Assembly: GCA_045046875.1 (NCBI GenBank)
Contig: JASFYY010000040.1
Span: 1 to 12,867, forward strand
DNA length: 12,867 bases
From: Verrucomicrobiota bacterium
Lineage (GTDB): Bacteria > Verrucomicrobiota > Verrucomicrobiia > Verrucomicrobiales > DEV007
Direction: 5' to 3'
A program made the position numbers and the translations under genes. How positions within the stretch are numbered: position 1 is the stretch's first letter; the number at the start of each line of letters is the position of its first letter. Shown here one piece after another: positions 5,753 to 12,867 of this stretch. A model generated the notes under the pieces. That model was not told the DNA's origin. It did not search any database and saw only the letters and a list, made by a program, of their open reading frames with translations.

Positions 5753-5801
5753 TTAAACTCTTTTTTTGAAGCGCCTGCGTTCTACCTATATAATTCCCCC
5801 C

Positions 5802-6281
5802 CTAAATAACAATCCCCGTAATATCCCCTTCAAAAACCATTTTATCATTAACAAAACCCTGGGATTCAAATACCGCAATTCTCGATCTCAGTTTTTTCGC
5901 TCTTGTGATCATGAGAAAATCACATCCCGGTTCCACACTGCCACGAAACTTCACATTATTTACCCCGGCGAAACCAAAAAACTTTTTCCCGCCGGTATTA
6001 AATTTCAGGTGATAAATAACCGAACTCAACTGAGCCGCCATTTCTATCATCAACACACCAGGCATGATCGGGCGTCCCGGAATATGCCCTCGAGTCCAGA
6101 ATTCCTCGGCAGTCTGTTTTTTGATACCCACAGCAAGCCCTTGCTCGAGATCTAGTGAAATCAGTCGGTCTAATTGCTCAAACTCTTCACGCTGCGCATT
6201 CAGTTCAAGAATCTCTTCTTTAGTAACAGCCACTGCATCTAAGTTGATGTCAGCCAGTTCCAAAATCGGTTGTGATGCCAT
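5802..6281 (-). CDS. fabZ: 3-hydroxyacyl-ACP dehydratase, FabZ/FabA hotdog family
   Basis: RGHIPGRPIMPGVLMIEMAAQ (catalytic His and Glu of FabZ type) and VKFRGSVEPG; start placed at ATG 6281. Confidence 0.85.
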   Translation of the reverse strand: MASQPILELADINLDAVAVTKEEILELNAQREEFEQLDRLISLDLEQGLAVGIKKQTAEEFWTRGHIPGRPIMPGVLMIEMAAQLSSVIYHLKFNTGGKKFFGFAGVNNVKFRGSVEPGCDFLMITRAKKLRSRIAVFESQGFVNDKMVFEGDITGIVI

Positions 6282-6523
6282 TATGTCTAATCCAATCAAT
6301 TACGTGTTAAAATTGCCCCTTTGATACAGGCCGTGGACGAGAACCAAAAGACCGACGCCCCTATCACATACTATCAGAGTGCGTTGACTGCTAGAAATAA
6401 ATGGTAAGCATTTGCAGTTGTGAACCCCCTCAGGAAAAAACGAGAAGCATTTATTTCCAACAACGGTCACAAATACCCACCTCCGGCCTACTTGTATGCT
6501 ACCCTCCCAAGTCCTTCGACATC

Positions 6524-6787
6524 ATGGAAATCACCAACAAAACCAAAAAGCCTCTCAGGGTTCCTCTTCCAGCCGGAAAAAAACTCTTCTTGAACCCGGG
6601 AAAGTCCGGACAGATCACCCCGGCGGCGGCCACACGTCCTGCTGTGGTTAAACTGATTGAAACAGGAGACGTTGAACTCTCTGAAGAGGGCACCAAACGA
6701 CAAGGTGGAGATAGTTCCGGCAGCACCGTTTCCAGTGTTTCACGCGACGGTAGATCCGGAGCCATGCGGCAGTCCGGTGACAAATAA
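6524..6787 (+). CDS. Small hypothetical protein (87 aa)
   Basis: MEITNKTKKPLRVPLPAGKKLFLNPGKSGQI looks protein-like, with a G/S-rich disordered tail; best ORF in the gap between fabZ and the 6901-8652 gene. Confidence 0.65.
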   Translation: MEITNKTKKPLRVPLPAGKKLFLNPGKSGQITPAAATRPAVVKLIETGDVELSEEGTKRQGGDSSGSTVSSVSRDGRSGAMRQSGDK

Positions 6788-6900
6788 GTGGCGCCCCTTA
6801 GCCGTAGTCATTATTACTACGCCAACTCACGTTCACGTGGCAACGCCCTTTTCCTCCGTGAGCTGCCACATGAAGCACTTATCTTCACTGGTGAAGTAAT

Positions 6901-8652
6901 TTAACGAGATCGGGCTCCGTTGACGATGATCGTGACCGTGGCCTTACGATCCACCAAAGGCGCTGTTCCACCAATCACATAGGTGAATGTATCGACGATC
7001 GAACCACCTTCGCCTACATTCCGGAGAGTCGCCGAATCCGTCGGATCGTAGTCGAAGCTCCCGTCCGCGTTCACTTTAACTACAGCCCCTTTCGCACTGA
7101 GGGCATCATAGTCAATCACATCAGTGACCGGCCCCAAAACTGCCGCACGGACTTCCTGTAAGGTGAAATAATTTTTTCTCTCTCTGCTTGAATTCCGGGC
7201 AATGATACGGATCTGGTCAATCGTCTTACCCACAGCCAGCTCTACGTCCGTCGTAGAAACCCGCAGATGTTGGGGAGCGCCATCTGGTATTGCCAAGCCT
7301 GTGGCAATACCCTGGGATTTCCCCCCGCTGAGAAACTCGACATCAAAATCATTGTCACGGTTAACGCCTCGTGCATAGTCAATGCGGCCATACAAATCAA
7401 ACACCAGCTTCCCACCTTCAGCGAGCATCACTTCTGCTGCAATGTCATAGGTGATGATGACCGTCTCGCCAGCCGTCTCCTCAGTGTGAAAAGAATTAGA
7501 TTTTGAATAATCCAATTCAGGCAGTGATACCGTCGGATCAGAAGGGTCATAGGCAAATCCATCCGTCAGTGTGTTGCCTATCGATGACTCATTGTTAATG
7601 ACGGTAGCCACAGGCAATCCGTCCGATAACCTCACGGCGGTTGAATCAGTCAAGGTCAGCTCGCGAAAGTTCTGCAGGACACCGCTAAGGGCGGCATCCT
7701 CATTGGTGCGAAAAGTATTGCTCCGCCCACGCCCATTAACTGTGACAGTAACCGTGGCGGTGCGATCTGCCAGCGGTGCCTTACCGGCGACCACATAGGT
7801 GAACGTATCGTCAAGCGATTCACCTATGTTCAAAGCCTGGAGAGCGATCGCACTCGTCGGGTCAAAACTGAAACTCCCATCCGCGTTCACCACCACCTCC
7901 GCTCCGTTTTTACTGGTGGCATCGTGGCTTATTACCGCCGGCGAAACGGTCTTCAAGAACGCTGCCCGGACTTCCTGTAAGGTGAAATAATTAGGGTCGC
8001 CAAGCCCGTTTGAATCCCGCGCAACGATCCGAATCTGATCAACCGTAGTTCCTACATCCACTGACGCTTCAATCGTCGACACTCTGACGTGCTCGGGAGA
8101 TGGCGGGTATTGAGCTGCTTGAATAATTACTCCCGCAACGGTATTCCCCACAATCACTCCATCACTGAGAAATTCCACGTCAAAATCATCATCCCTATCA
8201 GGGGGGGCCGTTGGTTTGCTTCCATACAAATCAAACACAATCACCCTACCTGCAGTCAGGGTTGTCCCGGCAATATCGTAGCTAATGATGATTGTCTCAC
8301 CGGCTGGCTCGTTAGCGACAAATGAATTTTTCGCCGAGTAATTCAGCGCAGGCAACGTGGCAGTAGGATTCAGGGGATCGTAAACAAATCCATCAGTCAA
8401 CGTATTGCCAATCAGGGTACGTCCATAGGTCGTCACAGGCAGTCTATCCTGCCCTACCGCCATCGGATTGCTCAGCGCAAGCGTCAATTCGTTCCGTAAC
8501 ACTCCTGGAGCTGCCACATTCAGTGCTTCGTTTTCATCCGTGGAGTAGTTCGGATCGTCTTTCACCAGTGCCTGTCCCCGACCACTGGTGAGCGATATCA
8601 GCAGTGTTGCGAAAATCGCGGCTATTCTGGGAACTCGATAGCTATGTTTCAT
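6901..8652 (-). CDS. Secreted protein with two tandem VCBS/cadherin-like Ig repeats, each carrying an inserted ~180-aa domain
   Basis: Signal peptide; DD..Y.TDE...GVL.N and GA.V.VNADGSF..DP...L..GE...DTFTY...ATVT..VNG occur twice; 26-bp exact internal DNA identity at 7148-7173 and 7967-7992. Confidence 0.85.
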   Translation of the reverse strand: MKHSYRVPRIAAIFATLLISLTSGRGQALVKDDPNYSTDENEALNVAAPGVLRNELTLALSNPMAVGQDRLPVTTYGRTLIGNTLTDGFVYDPLNPTATLPALNYSAKNSFVANEPAGETIIISYDIAGTTLTAGRVIVFDLYGSKPTAPPDRDDDFDVEFLSDGVIVGNTVAGVIIQAAQYPPSPEHVRVSTIEASVDVGTTVDQIRIVARDSNGLGDPNYFTLQEVRAAFLKTVSPAVISHDATSKNGAEVVVNADGSFSFDPTSAIALQALNIGESLDDTFTYVVAGKAPLADRTATVTVTVNGRGRSNTFRTNEDAALSGVLQNFRELTLTDSTAVRLSDGLPVATVINNESSIGNTLTDGFAYDPSDPTVSLPELDYSKSNSFHTEETAGETVIITYDIAAEVMLAEGGKLVFDLYGRIDYARGVNRDNDFDVEFLSGGKSQGIATGLAIPDGAPQHLRVSTTDVELAVGKTIDQIRIIARNSSRERKNYFTLQEVRAAVLGPVTDVIDYDALSAKGAVVKVNADGSFDYDPTDSATLRNVGEGGSIVDTFTYVIGGTAPLVDRKATVTIIVNGARSR

Positions 8653-8833
8653 AAAGATTCCCCGCCTCTTAAACGAGGTTGTTTCAATGTGCTGGAACTC
8701 CTCCTATAAATTGGACACAGGGAGGTTAATCCGATCGGTTTTAATTTAAGGTGATTGTTTCAAGGTTAAAGCATTTTCTTGGTTTAGGCTTTTACCTGAT
8801 CCCATCCCGCTTTTCACCTATTACCCGCCAGCG

Positions 8834-8858
8834 AAAATTCAAAAGCGGACTCGTCCGC
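8834..8858 (-). terminator. Probable intrinsic terminator downstream of the outermost tRNA 3'-end copy
   Basis: Minus strand GCGGA-cgag-TCCGC followed by TTTTGAATTTT. Confidence 0.5.
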
Positions 8859-8879
8859 CATAGCCTCGGCGACGGCGGA
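8854..8879. repeat. REP-like palindrome TCCGCC-ATAGCCTCGGCGAC-GGCGGA fused to the att core
   Basis: 6-bp inverted arms with an inner GCC-tc-GGC; related to 3151-3172 and 2340-2374. Confidence 0.6.
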
Positions 8880-8976
8880 AGGAGTGGGATTAACTCCCGC
8901 TTGTAGCAACTCGTTGATTATCAAAGGTTAAGTTTTCACCTCCGACAAATTAACTTACACCCGTAACTTACAGATT
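8874..8976 (-). repeat. att site copy A: tRNA(Ser)-like 3' end + IHF site + arm-type repeats
   Basis: Minus strand AATCCCACTCCTTCCGCC (T-loop end, T-stem, acceptor stem, G discriminator). 93/103 identical, ungapped, to 11329-11431. TAACTTACA at 8951-8959 and 8964-8972. Confidence 0.85.
8907..8919 (-). promoter_or_regulatory. IHF-binding consensus in att copy A
   Basis: Minus strand AATCAAcgagTTG is a perfect WATCAANNNNTTR match. Confidence 0.65.
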
Positions 8977-9273
8977 TACACGAATACTTTGACAGAAATT
9001 TGATTGGCTAAACACACAGGTGAGGACCACTTAGCGAGAGTTGAAAAACGCTGCGGTATCCAGCCCATCCGAGAATGGACAACAATGGATGCCACCTTTC
9101 CATCAGACATCAATAGAAGACAGATGATTTCCTCGGCTATAGCCTCTCTTTCCTTGCACGTCCGATTCCACTGTTTTGACTTTAAAACCTGGCACAACAC
9201 GTGGCCGTGTTTTTGAGCTTCAGCTCCGTTTACACATATCTAATCAATTGAATTCTTACGAAACTTTATTAGG

Positions 9274-11016
9274 ATGAGCTCTATGTATAAAAAGAATATC
9301 CTTATTTCATGGCTGCCGGCACTTTCGCTTTATTTCAGCATGTTTTCATATTCAAATTTAGGAGTAGCGCAGGACACAGTTTTCAACATTCACAACGATT
9401 CCAGCAGTGTTCCCGACGGCTTCATAATATTCGATTCCAATGGAAACATCATAGAATATGATTCCAATGGAAACGTCACCAACAACCCAAACTGGCTCGA
9501 TCCTTCTTTCGAACCTTCATCAGTCTGGCTCGATGATTATCAGGGTTATGAAAGCCGTGATATTCGCTTTAGAACCAATCAATCAGGAACGCTGGCGCCC
9601 TTGCTGAATGCGGGTGACTATAAAAAATCCGTAGACGACAACTCGGGTCGTCAAATACTGCTAGCTCCTCCCAGCTTGGCCATAGGTATCGATATGATTT
9701 TCTCCACAGTGGACAGCGGATTAGGCATGGGGCTCATCAACCAACAACTTATCCGCGGCGCACCCGATGCTGCCTTGAGAGGCTTGAATACCCGCTTGTT
9801 CAGGGCTCGATCTGGCATGAAGCCTCAATCTACAGCACAGACCTCTACCTTTTCAGGCAATTCAAGTTTACTTCGCTACTTTGCCTTTGTTCAAGACGAA
9901 CACGTGGACTCCAAAGTGGCCCTTGGTCTGGCTGATGGGGTGGAGCGTACCATCGAGGTCAAAATGATTGACTCACTGAGTGCTCAAAATGGCATCAATA
10001 TGCACAATCAATCTCATGTAGGCGGCTTACCTTATGCATTACTAGCTGCCCCACTGGTCAGTGGCGCAACGACTGTAAAAATCATTGAAGCCGGTCCTTA
10101 TGATGCAAAAGTCCTTGATAGGGCCAAATCCGTAATCGAAACCGCGCCAACTAAACGCTGGGAAGCTTTTGTTTCTGGAGATTTCAGCCATTATGACCAG
10201 GACTCTTTGGACGAAATGCTGGAGAGCTTTGACACTGAAACATATGCTGGCAGCATTGGCGTTGAATACCACGCTAAAGAGTGGCTTAACATTGGCCTAG
10301 CTTGGACCTATCTGCAAAGTGAAGCCGCGGGATTGGGCGGCCTAGGAGACTTAGATCTCAACGGCAATCTAATTTCAGCTTATGCCACTGGCTTCTGGGA
10401 TCAGAACTGGGCCGATATTCTTTACAGTTACGGTTCCTTCGACAGTGATATCCTTCGCAACACAGGCCTCCTTGGAGGCAAGGCACGGGGAGAAACGGAT
10501 AGCGACAGCCACAATATACGGCTCAATATCGGCCGCAATATCCAAGTGACAAATAACATCGTCACTGGACCCATAGCAGGACTGCGTTACTCCAGTGGAA
10601 GCAGTGACCCATACAGTGAAAACGGAGGTGGGCTAGCCATGCTTAATTACGACGACACAGATTTTGAATCGATGCAAAGCCAAGTGGGCTGGCAGGCGAG
10701 CCACCTGCGTCCAACTGGTTGGGGACGCATCGTATCACAAGTGCACCTTGGCTGGGAACACGAATACATGCCAGAGAATGGCACGGTGGGAGTATCGATG
10801 CAGACCTCACCTTTTACCCTGGGAGGAAAACGAGTAGGTGGATTTTCCGCTGAGAGTGATGGGGAACATCCTGGCACAGACTGGATGTCAGCGGGAGTGG
10901 GACTGAGTTTTGAACTGGACCGCGGTTGGACTTTTTTAACCGACTACCAAGGCGCGTTCTTTCGAAGCGGTTCGACACAGCATTACGTCTCAGCAAAAGT
11001 GAATTACAAGTGGTAA
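9274..11016 (+). CDS. Autotransporter (type Va) outer-membrane beta-barrel protein with short passenger
   Basis: Signal peptide ending GVA-Q. The C-terminal ~285 aa show an amphipathic beta-strand pattern (GSIGVEY, YSENGGGLAMLNY, QVHLGWEHEY) and end in VNYKW. Start could be 9274 or 9283. Confidence 0.9.
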   Translation: MSSMYKKNILISWLPALSLYFSMFSYSNLGVAQDTVFNIHNDSSSVPDGFIIFDSNGNIIEYDSNGNVTNNPNWLDPSFEPSSVWLDDYQGYESRDIRFRTNQSGTLAPLLNAGDYKKSVDDNSGRQILLAPPSLAIGIDMIFSTVDSGLGMGLINQQLIRGAPDAALRGLNTRLFRARSGMKPQSTAQTSTFSGNSSLLRYFAFVQDEHVDSKVALGLADGVERTIEVKMIDSLSAQNGINMHNQSHVGGLPYALLAAPLVSGATTVKIIEAGPYDAKVLDRAKSVIETAPTKRWEAFVSGDFSHYDQDSLDEMLESFDTETYAGSIGVEYHAKEWLNIGLAWTYLQSEAAGLGGLGDLDLNGNLISAYATGFWDQNWADILYSYGSFDSDILRNTGLLGGKARGETDSDSHNIRLNIGRNIQVTNNIVTGPIAGLRYSSGSSDPYSENGGGLAMLNYDDTDFESMQSQVGWQASHLRPTGWGRIVSQVHLGWEHEYMPENGTVGVSMQTSPFTLGGKRVGGFSAESDGEHPGTDWMSAGVGLSFELDRGWTFLTDYQGAFFRSGSTQHYVSAKVNYKW

Positions 11017-11063
11017 GAGTTTGTGAAGTAATCCGCTCATCCGGGAGAACAACGTTTGTTTGT

Positions 11064-11094
11064 TCACTTACATCATTAACTTACAGCGTAAGTT
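11064..11094. repeat. Arm-type repeat pair at the right end of the mini-island
   Basis: TCACTTACA (11064-11072) and TAACTTACA (11077-11085) have the same 13-bp period as the pairs at 8951/8964 and 11406/11419; an inverted GTAAGTT follows at 11088-11094. Confidence 0.75.
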
Positions 11095-11149
11095 TTTCCC
11101 TTCCGACATTTCCTCAAACCCTAATTCCATGGGAGTTGAGCGCGCAACC

Positions 11150-11166
11150 GCGGAAGGAGTGGGATT
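11150..11166 (-). repeat. att core copy B (tRNA(Ser)-like 3' end, CCA not intact)
   Basis: Minus strand AATCCCACTCCTTCCGC then GG; 17 bp identical to copies A and C. Confidence 0.85.
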
Positions 11167-11327
11167 GCCATCGCTTCGCTCAGGCTGTCTCCGCTGCGAC
11201 GCGTCAGCGTTCGATAAATAGCGAAGCCTTTTTGCGGAGCCGCACAAGTGAAACGCTGCGCGGATAAACTGCCTTCTTCTCATCCCACGACTGACGGCAG
11301 TTCGCTCCCTGCTCCGCAGGGACGAAA
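11167..11327. repeat. Structured GC-rich spacer between two tRNA 3'-end copies (180-bp period; tRNA-linked-repeat-like)
   Basis: Hairpin TTCGcTCCCTGC-tcc-GCAGGGACGAA (11301-11326); AACTGCC/GGCAGTT inverted pair (11267-11273/11296-11302); ATCCCAC (11282-11288) is complementary to the core GTGGGAT. Confidence 0.55.
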
Positions 11328-11431
11328 TGGCGGAAGGAGTGGGATTAACCTCCACTTGTAGTAACTCGTTGATTATCAAAGGTGTAATTTTCACCTCCAA
11401 CACATTAACTTACACCCATAACTTACAGATT
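11328..11431 (-). repeat. att site copy C: tRNA(Ser)-like 3' end with CCA + IHF site + arm-type repeats
   Basis: Minus strand AATCCCACTCCTTCCGCCA (11346-11328); TAACTTACA at 11406-11414 and 11419-11427; ~90% identical to copy A. Confidence 0.85.
11362..11374 (-). promoter_or_regulatory. IHF-binding consensus in att copy C
   Basis: Minus strand AATCAAcgagTTA is a perfect WATCAANNNNTTR match; the only difference from copy A is at the degenerate R position. Confidence 0.65.
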
Positions 11432-11531
11432 CCAACGACTAATTCAGTCCTGAAGATTAATATAAAAAATAGCTCAGTTTCAGGGATCAGCTCATATCAC
11501 CCGCCATGATATATACTCACAAACTCCTAAA

Positions 11532-12152
11532 TTAAATTGCCTCGTAGGTTTCGTTGTAAATCGCTGACAATGACTTGCCATTAAATTCCCAATAGGATCC
11601 TGGTGCCACTCTGTAAGGCAAATCTAAGAGCATGCGGGTGACCTGAGATAATGATGTTTCCTCTTCATCATAATTCACCTTCCGCTCAGAAGCGACAGTT
11701 ATGGTGGCGTCCCCTTGGGTAAAGTGAAGAGTAGATCCTATCGGGATCCCCATCTCGACAAAATTTAGCGCCGGCCGCCGTTTGATTAATTTTTCGCTAG
11801 CCTCTTTTGATTCGATATCCACCTTTTCCGCTTCCTCTCGAATATCCGGAGTCACATCCTCTATTATCATCAACTTAAGAAGAGCAATAGCCTGATCAGG
11901 ATCAATTTGGAAAAACTCACGCTTTGGATTTAAACGGTATGGCCCAAATGCTTGGTGGAACGCACGCTCCACAACATTCTCGTCCTCTACCCTGCCAGCA
12001 AATGCGCACTCGAATGGCACGGGAACACCAGTCGAATACAACTCGTTCAATCTAGTGTCCACACCATTTCGCGCCGTCTTGCCAATCTTCACCAAGCCTG
12101 GCATAGCGGGGTTTGTAAGTACGTAGATGATTCCAGGTTCCTTATTGCTCAT
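11532..12152 (-). CDS. GIY-YIG nuclease (T5orf172-like) with RAMA/DUF4357-like C-terminal domain
   Basis: GIIYVLTNPAMPGLVKIGKT...RLNELYSTGVPVPF...VE...H...REFF is the T5orf172-type GIY-YIG signature; C-terminal SLS...GSYWEFNGKSL. Start placed at ATG 12152. Confidence 0.85.
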   Translation of the reverse strand: MSNKEPGIIYVLTNPAMPGLVKIGKTARNGVDTRLNELYSTGVPVPFECAFAGRVEDENVVERAFHQAFGPYRLNPKREFFQIDPDQAIALLKLMIIEDVTPDIREEAEKVDIESKEASEKLIKRRPALNFVEMGIPIGSTLHFTQGDATITVASERKVNYDEEETSLSQVTRMLLDLPYRVAPGSYWEFNGKSLSAIYNETYEAI

Positions 12153-12292
12153 ATATTTGCAACATTTCAGAATTATCAGCCTGAGGTCAACATGATTCTG
12201 GCTTCCATCCGAATTGAATTGCCATGTCAAACCTCGCCAACTAATCTGCCAGCGATGCTGGCATTTTCGCAGCAGGACAAATAAACTTTGAG

Positions 12293-12631
12293 ATGAGAAT
12301 TCTAACCTGGAATATCCAACATGGTGGAGGCAAGCGGATAGAGCAGATATTCAAAGCTCTTTGCCCTTACAAAGCTGACCTGATAGTCTTGTCGGAATTT
12401 CGCCAAAACAAAGCGTCCGACAGATTGAGTGCGCTCCTCAGAGAAGCAGGCTACCTCTATCAGTCTGCGCAGCATGCGCCAGCCACGAGTAACATTGTAT
12501 TCGTTGCGGCTCGACGCCCCTTCGAAGCAATAACGTTTCCCGGTCAACCTGGGGATGAAGAGTTTGGAGATTTCACAAATCGCATTCTCCTAGCACGAAT
12601 TGAGGGATTGAATATTTTCAGCCTCTACTTA
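12293..12631 (+). pseudogene. Endonuclease/exonuclease/phosphatase (EEP) family gene, 5' part, interrupted by IS630
   Basis: MRILTWNIQHGGG and DLIVLSEF are EEP motifs. The gene is cut after SLYL at the TA 12630-12631; the C-terminal GDxN and SDH motifs are missing. Confidence 0.8.
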
Positions 12632-12867
12632 CTAACCCGGCGGATAATTAACATGCATACCTTATCGTTTCAGCTTTAAAGTAACTGGCTATTCTTGCAG
12701 GCATTTTTTGGAGTGAACGCATGACGCTGCGTGCGGTTTTTTTGAGTGCTCCTTTTTCGCGGAGGTCTGGACGTTTGGCGATTTGATACTTTAAATCGCA
12801 ATTAAGAAATTCGTCCGGATTAAGATCAGGCGAATAACTTGGCAGGTATTTCAACGTGATTTTTTTA
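12632..12867 (-). mobile_element. IS630-family insertion sequence, one end (continues beyond window)
   Basis: Transposase C-terminus followed by a short terminus TTATCCGCCGGGTTAG abutting a TA dinucleotide, the IS630/Tc1 target. Confidence 0.85.
12648..12866 (-). CDS. IS630-family DDE transposase, C-terminal part (5' end outside window)
   Basis: ITLKYLPSYSPDLNPDEFLN matches the LP.YSP.LNP.E signature that carries the catalytic Glu; ends YF....IRYAC. Confidence 0.92.
   Translation of the reverse strand, partial: KKITLKYLPSYSPDLNPDEFLNCDLKYQIAKRPDLREKGALKKTARSVMRSLQKMPARIASYFKAETIRYAC

Follow-up and report, generated by a model that had tools for sequence, protein, structure and literature searches.

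The region from 8874 to 12867 of contig C40 (the window is the whole 12,867-nt stretch of this contig that was analysed) is, in our judgement, likely to be part of a short tandem array behind tRNA-Ser(CGA). Its units are an island with a DUF6538 integrase next to the tRNA, a mini-repeat of 162 bp, and an autotransporter cassette that has no integrase; the cassette is a likely passenger that could be mobilised in cis by the neighbouring integrase. The order of the elements is tRNA, arm, and integrase on contig C49, followed after a gap by nuclease, arm, core, mini-repeat, core, arm, autotransporter, arm, core, and host flank (Table 1); the same arm motif is present at all four ends. In the close relative G005, the sequence from 8874 leftwards directly abuts the tRNA and the C49 flank; this empty site places the intact tRNA on the minus strand past the right edge of the window (C49), as the initial annotation had proposed. 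The locus shows an intact tRNA, an integrase, a displaced 3′ fragment in the same orientation, and a relative's empty site, which together make up the Islander definition (PMC4383910).

Anatomy of the array

Table 1. Features of the array in window coordinates.
Feature	Position	Strand	Remarks
att core 1, displaced tRNA-Ser(CGA) 3′ end, outer (attR) junction of whole array	8874..8891	-	
P-type arm, autotransporter cassette	8892..8976	.	IHF-like 8907-8919; arm sites 8951-8959, 8964-8972
Decayed IS3-like left end within cassette	9099..9226	-	74% over 128 nt to G001 element
Autotransporter cargo, 580 aa	9274..11016	+	PF03797 E 2e-35
P′-type arm, autotransporter cassette	11064..11149	.	arm-site pair 11064-11072 / 11077-11085
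att core 2	11150..11166	-	17 nt, without CCA end
Mini-repeat, 162 bp, non-coding, tRNA-linked, between cores 2 and 3	11167..11328	-	single copy in genome
att core 3	11328..11346	-	complete through CCA end
P-type arm, right-hand element	11347..11431	.	IHF-like 11362-11374; arm sites 11406-11414, 11419-11427
T5orf172/GIY-YIG-type nuclease, candidate defence gene	11532..12152	-	Pfam; PADLOC candidate PDC-S57, E 6e-77
EEP-family gene, N-terminal half only, IS630-interrupted	12293..12629	+	right boundary inferred
IS630 transposase 3′ end, cut by contig end	12630..12867	-	PF13358, NF033545; left boundary inferred

The 103-bp block at the end of the cassette was initially described as recurring with 10 mismatches and no gaps, and alignment of 8874–8976 with 11329–11431 gave exactly that count (mismatches at 8895, 8896, 8899, 8907, 8929, 8930, 8932, 8944, 8948, and 8963). 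The four 9-mers and the IHF consensus were likewise located intact in both blocks, i.e., TAACTTACA at 8951, 8964, 11406, and 11419, and minus-strand matches to WATCAANNNNTTR, which we take to be the IHF consensus, at 8907 and 11362. When up to one mismatch is allowed, the paired arm motif occurs three times in the window, as compared to 0.00 expected (200 shuffles); the third pair (11064–11085) is the other arm of the autotransporter cassette. Four copies of the 17-nt core are present in the genome, three in the window and one that forms the tRNA-Ser(CGA) 3′ end on C49, which bears out the earlier assignment of the core to a tRNA-Ser 3′ end; core 1 is the exact reverse complement of C49:73972–73989 and, at the unoccupied site of G005, is the terminal part of the intact tRNA. 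The 103-bp block is an attR end consisting of the tRNA-Ser(CGA) 3′ core, an IHF-like site, and an arm-site pair. Its origin as a dispersed repeat or a local duplication unrelated to integration has practically no standing: the abundance of small repeats in the genome speaks for it, but the core count (just two copies of the block, each beginning at the tRNA core), the empty site in G005, and the identical geometry in all 24 integrase islands compared below refute it.

The initial annotation had also read selection on binding sites into the placement of the mismatches. With motifs chosen after the fact, a mismatch-placement test gave P values of 0.13 (arm sites only), 0.026 (IHF site included), and 0.009 (core excluded); selection is only modestly supported by this pair of sequences and much better by comparison across the family. 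Neither block folds better than shuffled sequence on either strand (z of −0.03 to −0.85), which gives no attC hairpin. A decayed arm without a core was also seen at 218–292 of the window, and likewise in G001 and G003, showing that such ends often turn into fossils.

The cassette (2.3 kb, with a surface protein as cargo) is bounded by cores at 8874 and 11150, both matching the tRNA-Ser(CGA) 3′ end, and keeps attL and attR, with arm pairs at both ends. Its open reading frames comprise only the autotransporter and an IS3-like remnant, with no recombinase or transfer gene, and a six-frame search of the cassette with an integrase HMM for an integrase remnant gave nothing significant (best domain E 6). 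The IS3 label follows from the matching G001 element, whose ORF resembles IS3 OrfA. The P-type arm lies about 61 bp from the core with a period of 13 bp, both family-like; the P′-type arm lies 81 bp from the core start, as compared to 83 bp in the C49 island, and its IHF-like site is degenerate (6/9), while the attR at the outer end is perfect. Loss of the integrase from a sister island probably gave rise to the cassette. The cargo gene, which ends 47 bp from the inner arm, belongs to a paralogue family of this lineage with four further copies in the genome, none beside att motifs; since these four and three homologous loci of congeners are without core or arm, flanking by att sites was rejected as a general trait of the autotransporter family.

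The 162-bp mini-repeat has a fold z of −1.5, and units resembling it adjoin the same tRNA end in G003, G104, and G140; an Rfam scan of 8600–12867, mini-repeat included, returned nothing relevant. The genome as a whole is rich in small repeats.

The P-type arm of the right-hand element and the C49 attL arm contain a common 22-mer (21/22), inverted about the core, and this arm is probably the attR of the integrase-bearing island that has its attL on C49. The right-hand element is most simply, and probably, the end of that island and not a second cassette; the visible array has one gene-bearing unit without an integrase instead of the long stack initially envisaged. As for its cargo, the GIY-YIG nuclease and EEP assignments stood; the EEP ORF is an N-terminal half only (128 aa vs. 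238–245 aa in six relatives) that continues into an IS630 end. The genome was searched for the C-terminal half of the EEP gene and for any other IS630 piece, and neither was found. The ends of C40 and C49 had no match elsewhere in the assembly, and the two contigs stay unjoined; the right-hand element may itself be a unit without an integrase, and further units may sit in the gap. Geometry would place the oldest module at the left, as initially proposed, but the cassette and the island may have been acquired jointly.

The DUF6538 integrase and its island family

The gene behind tRNA-Ser(CGA) on C49 encodes a tyrosine integrase of the DUF6538 type and is accompanied by matching arms, in agreement with the earlier expectation of an integrase with an extra N-terminal domain. 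The 629-aa protein (C49:74082–75971) matches DUF6538 and a SAM-like core-binding domain and has the catalytic residues R433, K471, H543, R546, W569, and Y579, a set that is invariant, except for R/K numbering, across 15 aligned homologues; the C49 attL carries TGTACGTTT-N4-TGTAAGTTA, which is the arm motif of the window. The structural model of DUF6538 has a three-strand/one-helix arrangement (E10–13, E16–22, E43–47, and H53–79, with pLDDT about 90 there), and its fold matches are weak, with the lambda Int N-terminus (Z 4.3) and the HPI arm-binding domain (Z 4.2, rmsd 2.9, 52 aligned) both tied with unrelated folds; a Foldseek search of the model against PDB gave no match. DUF6538 is likely the arm-binding domain. 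A literature search for the term DUF6538 found no paper, and the integrase family is little studied. The other DUF6538 integrase of the genome (C54), whose island showed no attR within 13.5 kb, was ruled out as the cognate enzyme by its different arm motif. No excisionase, relaxase, oriT, or conjugation/transfer genes were found in 5.0 kb (C49) and 1.5 kb (window) of the island, the island middle lying outside these stretches.

Among the 30 best integrase loci, 25 lie directly behind a tRNA (tRNA-Ser in 20), and a downstream core was found in 24 of the 25 tRNA-linked islands examined; no tRNA was found in the stretch of G071 examined. Direct-repeat arm sites flank the core on both sides with a spacing of about 83/61 bp, and a 13-bp period scored best in every closed island (24/24; mean score 29.0 of 32, as compared to 22.7–24.0 for other periods). 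Arm motif groups track the integrase tree, with five groups needing 5–7 changes vs. 13.6 when shuffled, in a count that uses grouping by eye and related, hence non-independent, integrases. The three integrases with TGTAAG arms, including that of C49, branch together in the DUF6538 tree (99/98), and their grouping is weakly supported in the catalytic-domain tree (74/84). These comparisons place the arms in a widespread family of lambda-like islands; DUF6538 integrases are a tRNA-targeting family found in Verrucomicrobiota and Alphaproteobacteria, with predictable att sites. Arm pairs matched seven times in 400 other genomes, two matches being att-related (G003 and G023, the latter an attL whose integrase was replaced by IS elements) and five at the level of chance found in controls. 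In collections that may lack near genomes, scans of metagenome contigs for the arm pattern and of genome contigs for the core-plus-arm pattern gave no match, and none of 86 pattern matches in metagenome contigs was confirmed as a relative of the C49 integrase; five viral arm-pair matches, which have no core, tRNA, or integrase, were rejected as chance.

An integrase-less passenger was found in one of the 24 closed family islands (G149, in which a 914-bp unit of the same design lies behind the island) and in none of the 22 members of the GTDB set, over stretches of up to 11.8 kb; four matches to short cores with two mismatches (G074, G170, and two in G149), which are without arms, were rejected as chance. 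This rarity bears on an integron-like platform, in which a resident integrase inserts and excises many purpose-built, integrase-less cassettes singly in trans and the right-hand element is another such cassette. The arm pairs at both cassette ends with near-family spacing, the absence of an integrase remnant, the short distance from cargo to inner arm, the different states behind the same flank (see below), and a contig gap that could hide further units are all compatible with such a platform; it is nevertheless unlikely, given the single visible unit, the degenerate inner IHF-like site, the lack of attC-like hairpins, and an integrase that fails the integron-integrase model.

Strain comparison and movement of the cassette

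In public runs, the cassette is about 99.6% identical, as compared to about 95% for the backbone. One X7 contig covers 8909–11346 with nine differences in 2438 nt, while the X7 contig over 7800–8830 shows 55 differences in 1031 nt; in X6, the cassette shows seven differences in 2365 nt vs. 58 in 1092 for the backbone. In these runs, backbone and cassette contigs are separate records, which are assigned to a single organism by their comparable depth (21.8 and 23.9 in X7). Three states were found behind the same flank, i.e., empty (G005), autotransporter (G000 and X6–X8), and a 4.7-kb X7 contig that matches 8842–8982 and continues into 4.6 kb of other sequence, representing other cargo behind a sister arm; the initial expectation that content varies between relatives was thus borne out. 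No contig of X6, X7, X8, or X1 covers 11349–12531, and the C49 island is without cover in X7 and X2, with only low-depth pieces in X6 and X8; this pattern fits a cassette without this island, though missing cover is no evidence. Neither an excised circle nor a joined form was seen in the public-run contigs, which were the only material searched; the comparison covered X1, X2, and X6–X8, the shares of X3–X5 being small.

These data also bear on whether the units are inert relics, the cassette being a dead island remnant and its near-identity between strains the product of exchange through the shared arms, tRNA, and flanks, by homologous recombination or natural transformation. Core-less fossil arms in G001 and G003, the G023 attL, the damage done to the two units by IS3 and IS630, and a 17-nt stretch next to core 1 that differs in the X7 and X8 cassette contigs, as a crossover inside a shared arm would leave, agree with this explanation. 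It is very unlikely in view of the outer arm sites and IHF-like sites (four and two, respectively), all of which are perfect, the intact cognate integrase in the genome, and a left flank whose differences (8786–8837) run to within 40 bp of the core with no conversion tract, as expected of a site-specific junction. The X7 and X8 cassette contigs do not align over 8892–8908, and X7 has other letters directly behind core 1, which simple cis-transfer of a whole attR leaves unexplained.

For the cis-mobilised passenger that we favour, the steps can be drawn by analogy with lambda-type integrases: DUF6538 would bind the 9-N4-9 arm repeats, IHF would bend the arms, and the catalytic domain would cut in the tRNA 3′ core. 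Recombination of the island attL with the intact outer attR of the cassette could then excise island and cassette as one circle, and integration at an empty tRNA-Ser of another strain, followed by excision of the island only, would leave the cassette behind. The locus offers sequence evidence of recent movement of a 2.3-kb integrase-less cassette between strains about 5% apart. A broader proposal, which we regard as doubtful, is that DUF6538 islands are shuttles that take up minimal one-gene cassettes bearing the arm code, built from genes of the host lineage (here an autotransporter paralogue), move them between species, and deposit them at tRNA genes; if true, this would be an integron analogue with lambda chemistry, DUF6538 being an uncharacterised arm-reading domain and its code readable from genomes.

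Comparison with known systems

The integron-like, undescribed system initially proposed was not supported, as the att arms are double-stranded and lambda-like, with no attC hairpins, and tandem accretion that includes integrase-less passengers (CIMEs) has already been described (PMC5704250, PMC3146451). The former defines CIMEs and site-specific tandem accretion (ICESt1/ICESt3 of Streptococcus thermophilus). The cassette resembles CIMEs in that it retains attL and attR but has no genes for integration or transfer, and probably lies in tandem behind a related element with an integrase, where a target gene has its 3′ end. It differs in that its helper is a small DUF6538 island in which no conjugation genes were seen, it measures 2.3 kb and carries a single cargo gene, helper and passenger are separated by a mini-repeat, and mobilisation is inferred. 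The Dehalococcoides ssrA islands (PMC3146451) are tandem and bounded by a 20-bp target-gene repeat, and 15 of them, without an integration module, were proposed to be cis-mobilisable; the serine recombinase DsiB and a six-gene module act there, unlike the tyrosine integrase with arm sites here. Prochlorococcus tycheposons and cryptic elements (bioRxiv 10.1101/2020.12.28.424599) and Alteromonas additive flexible islands (PMC4898812) share with this locus serial tRNA integration that displaces older elements outwards and near-identical cassettes in divergent backgrounds, while here no replication module was seen, and both the arm-site code and its cognate integrase have been worked out.

With lambda, P4, and HPI integrases (PMC8138268; PDB 1z1b, 3jtz), the C49 enzyme shares a predicted N-terminal three-strand/one-helix domain, core-binding and catalytic domains, and a core flanked on each side by direct-repeat arm sites, with IHF-like sites between; its 629 aa, N-terminal DUF6538, fixed 13-bp period, and about 83/61-bp spacing family-wide set it apart from the systems treated there. 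Integrons likewise string unrelated cargo units together at a single site, the newest probably being nearest to the integrase; unlike them, this locus has a tRNA target, double-stranded arms, one passenger unit, no attC hairpin, and no IntI-type integrase (no match of the 629-aa protein to TIGR02249, and 36.7 bits against a cut-off of 265 for a second, 340-aa recombinase), and an integron was rejected. The locus is probably a tandem accretion with a predicted cis-mobilisable element, i.e., island building of a known kind; what is new is the att anatomy of DUF6538 integrases, with DUF6538 as the likely arm-binding domain. The locus is of value in that it supplies predicted binding sites open to testing and assigns DUF6538 a likely role, and predictable att sites could aid island annotation and integrase prospecting.

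Attachment blocks and the tRNA-Ser(CGA) target

Realignment confirmed the repeated block of the initial annotation: positions 8874–8976 align without gaps to 11329–11431 with 10 mismatches, all four TAACTTACA 9-mers are intact across the two blocks, and both IHF-like sites are intact. A further arm pair (two 9-mers 4 nt apart) was identified with one mismatch, and the window holds three arm pairs, as compared to 0.00 expected from 200 shuffles. The proposal that mismatch placement reflects selection on binding sites found only modest support, with P ranging from 0.13 to 0.009 by motif set and the sets picked post hoc.

The window makes up all of contig C40. The first 18 nt of the blocks correspond, in reverse complement, to the 3′ terminus of tRNA-Ser(CGA), of which an intact copy lies on contig C49 of the same genome; this genome has four copies of the 17-nt core, at 8875 (core 1), 11150 (core 2), 11330 (core 3), and in this tRNA. 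In a congener (G005; flanks 92–98% identical), the sequence of 5800–8891 continues directly into an intact tRNA and then into the C49 flank; because both flanks are joined at the intact tRNA there, C49 and C40 represent two sides of one insertion site. This empty site bears out the predicted minus-strand tRNA-Ser beyond the right edge, with the gap between the two contigs still unclosed; islands in metagenome-assembled genomes are commonly split over scaffolds (PMC9580842). The description of the array as integron-like was not sustained, as the array fails the tests for both attC and IntI, and an integron-like platform acting in trans is an unlikely explanation. The fossil arm at 218–292, lying 8.6 kb from core 1, is possibly the trace of an earlier accreted island.

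Features of the window, of C49, and of fetched loci
Location	Feature	Observation
1–221	MITE-like repeat	Dozens of genomic copies; contig ends a frequent location
218–292	Fossil arm and ~50 bp of adjoining sequence, same orientation	73.5% over 68 nt to 8957–9024; left side cut by multicopy repeat; unaligned in G005
6901–8652	583-aa secreted protein	Internal duplication; no Pfam matches; conserved beside G005 empty site
8892–11149	Cassette	Autotransporter gene, IS3-like remnant, arm pairs at both ends
8928–8949; 11077–11110	TGTCGGA-GG-GAAAA-CTTA-like motif	Minus strand; in both cassette arms
9040–9090	Segment single-copy in source genome	Two look-alikes in G001, one adjoining an IS3-like end
11064–11085	Further arm pair	
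11064–11149	Cassette inner arm	Additional inverted arm-like site
C49:73901–73990	Intact tRNA-Ser(CGA)	
C49:73643–73715 (L052:3644–3716)	Second copy of tRNA-Ser(CGA) 5′ 73 nt	Short structured insert separates it from partial 3′ end; split copy also in G005, similar upstream copy in G001
L052:7734–8756	340-aa recombinase of C49 island	Xer-like
L053:922–2877 (contig C54)	Second DUF6538 island of this genome	At tRNA-Ser(TGA); different arm motif
L024:3290–3372 (G001)	Decayed sister end	Full arm without core, fused to host gene
L022:8595–8616 (G003)	Decayed sister end	Arm pair and Fic gene; outer core absent
L145 (G023)	Decayed sister end	attL, with IS elements in place of integrase

Probable helper island and passenger cassette

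The gene immediately behind the tRNA on C49 specifies a tyrosine recombinase of 629 aa, which has DUF6538 as its N-terminal domain and carries the catalytic residues R, K, H, R, W, and Y; after it come genes for an HTH regulator and a hypothetical protein, then one for a second recombinase. Between tRNA and integrase gene, we found the window's arm motif, TGTACGTTT-N4-TGTAAGTTA, and a 22-mer matching the IHF-like segment of the right-hand arm at 21 of 22 positions, inverted about the core. On the simplest reading, drawn across the contig gap from this shared motif and 22-mer, 11329–12867 would be the attR end of the C49 island; the second element, initially taken for a separate sister cassette, would therefore be the helper itself.

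No integrase was found within the cassette. Its outer arm is perfect. In the inner arm, the arm sites are preserved, the IHF-like site is degenerate, and the spacing is slightly shorter. The predicted fold of 11060–11166 is more stable than those of shuffled sequences (z about −2.6); the motif shared by both arms and this fold possibly represent an accessory-factor site or a terminator of the autotransporter gene. A 162-bp mini-repeat separates cores 2 and 3, and similar units flank the same tRNA end in three relatives (G003, G104, and G140).

The cassette itself shows the testable features of a cis-mobilisable element (CIME), with cores and arms at both ends and no integrase of its own, and, judged from sequence, appears to work like one behind the island. 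Most likely, the island integrase would pair its own attL with either attR; recombination with the outer attR (core 1 side) would excise island, mini-repeat, and cassette jointly, and recombination with the inner attR would leave the passenger behind. Such use of either attR would account for an outer arm that is intact and an inner one that is worn, as well as for a near-identical cassette in a divergent backbone.

The DUF6538 integrase family

Of 401 genomes from the order, 40 contain homologues of the C49 integrase (E up to 1e-20); a tRNA lies directly upstream at 25 of the 30 best homologue loci, 20 of these being tRNA-Ser. We fetched 7–60 kb for 25 loci of relatives and for the C54 locus; a tRNA is present at 25/26 and a downstream core at 24 of the 25 tRNA-bearing loci, delimiting islands of 6.0–19.4 kb, and no attR was found within the 13.5 kb fetched for C54. 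A joint four-site search selected a 13-bp period in all 24 closed islands, with arms mostly separated from the core start by about 82–84 bp at attL and by about 61 bp at attR; the window's arms share this geometry. An integrase-less passenger follows a closed island in one case (1/24), a 914-bp unit in G149 (L138) behind an island at tRNA-Cys, with two small genes resembling, by eye, a PIN-type toxin-antitoxin pair.

A GTDB scan confirmed 220 loci, of which 80, overlapping the order-level set and coming from Verrucomicrobiota and Alphaproteobacteria, were kept. The closest named relatives of the integrase agree with a host that is probably a member of Verrucomicrobiales. An upstream tRNA was present at 62/80; within the span examined, 22 had an attR (period 13 in 20) and none of these 22 a second core. 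On trees of the N-terminal and of the catalytic protein end alike, integrases with similar arm motifs tend to group together; on the N-terminal tree, the three integrases with TGTAAG arms form one branch. G074 was represented in this analysis by separate ORF pieces. The predicted N-terminal structure has three strands and one helix, a layout described for arm-binding domains (PMC8138268), and the lambda and HPI arm-binding domains were among its top structural matches, as weak ones. A search of open-access main texts found no paper with the term DUF6538 and, among the papers listed, none on a Verrucomicrobia-specific island. The family-level att code of DUF6538 integrases is the most useful by-product of the analysis.

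Probable mobility between strains and known systems

The cassette and mini-repeat are present in public sequencing runs of one study. A single contig of run X7 spans 8909–11346 with 9 differences, as compared to 55 in 1031 nt for a contig over 7800–8830, and run X6 presents 7 differences in 2365 versus 58 in 1092; these contigs are separate records from metagenome-scale runs, linked solely by similar depth. A 4713-nt X7 contig matches 8842–8982 before continuing into other sequence, with indels that liken it to the right-hand arm; it carries different cargo at the same flank. Counting against a simple transfer story, alignment of the X7 and X8 cassette contigs begins only at 8909 and the X7 letters behind 8891 differ. 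Neither excised nor joined forms turned up among the run contigs. That inert relics were spread via homologous recombination is improbable, and we favor integrase-mediated use of either attR.

Tycheposons push older elements outwards (bioRxiv 2020.12.28.424599), Alteromonas species share near-identical cassettes (PMC4898812), and Islander lists 125 tandems in 3919 islands (PMC4383910). The mechanism proposed here is the CIME/accretion model as presented in PMC5704250, which was also proposed for Dehalococcoides islands (PMC3146451); the array is probably a further case of known CIME/tandem-accretion island building.
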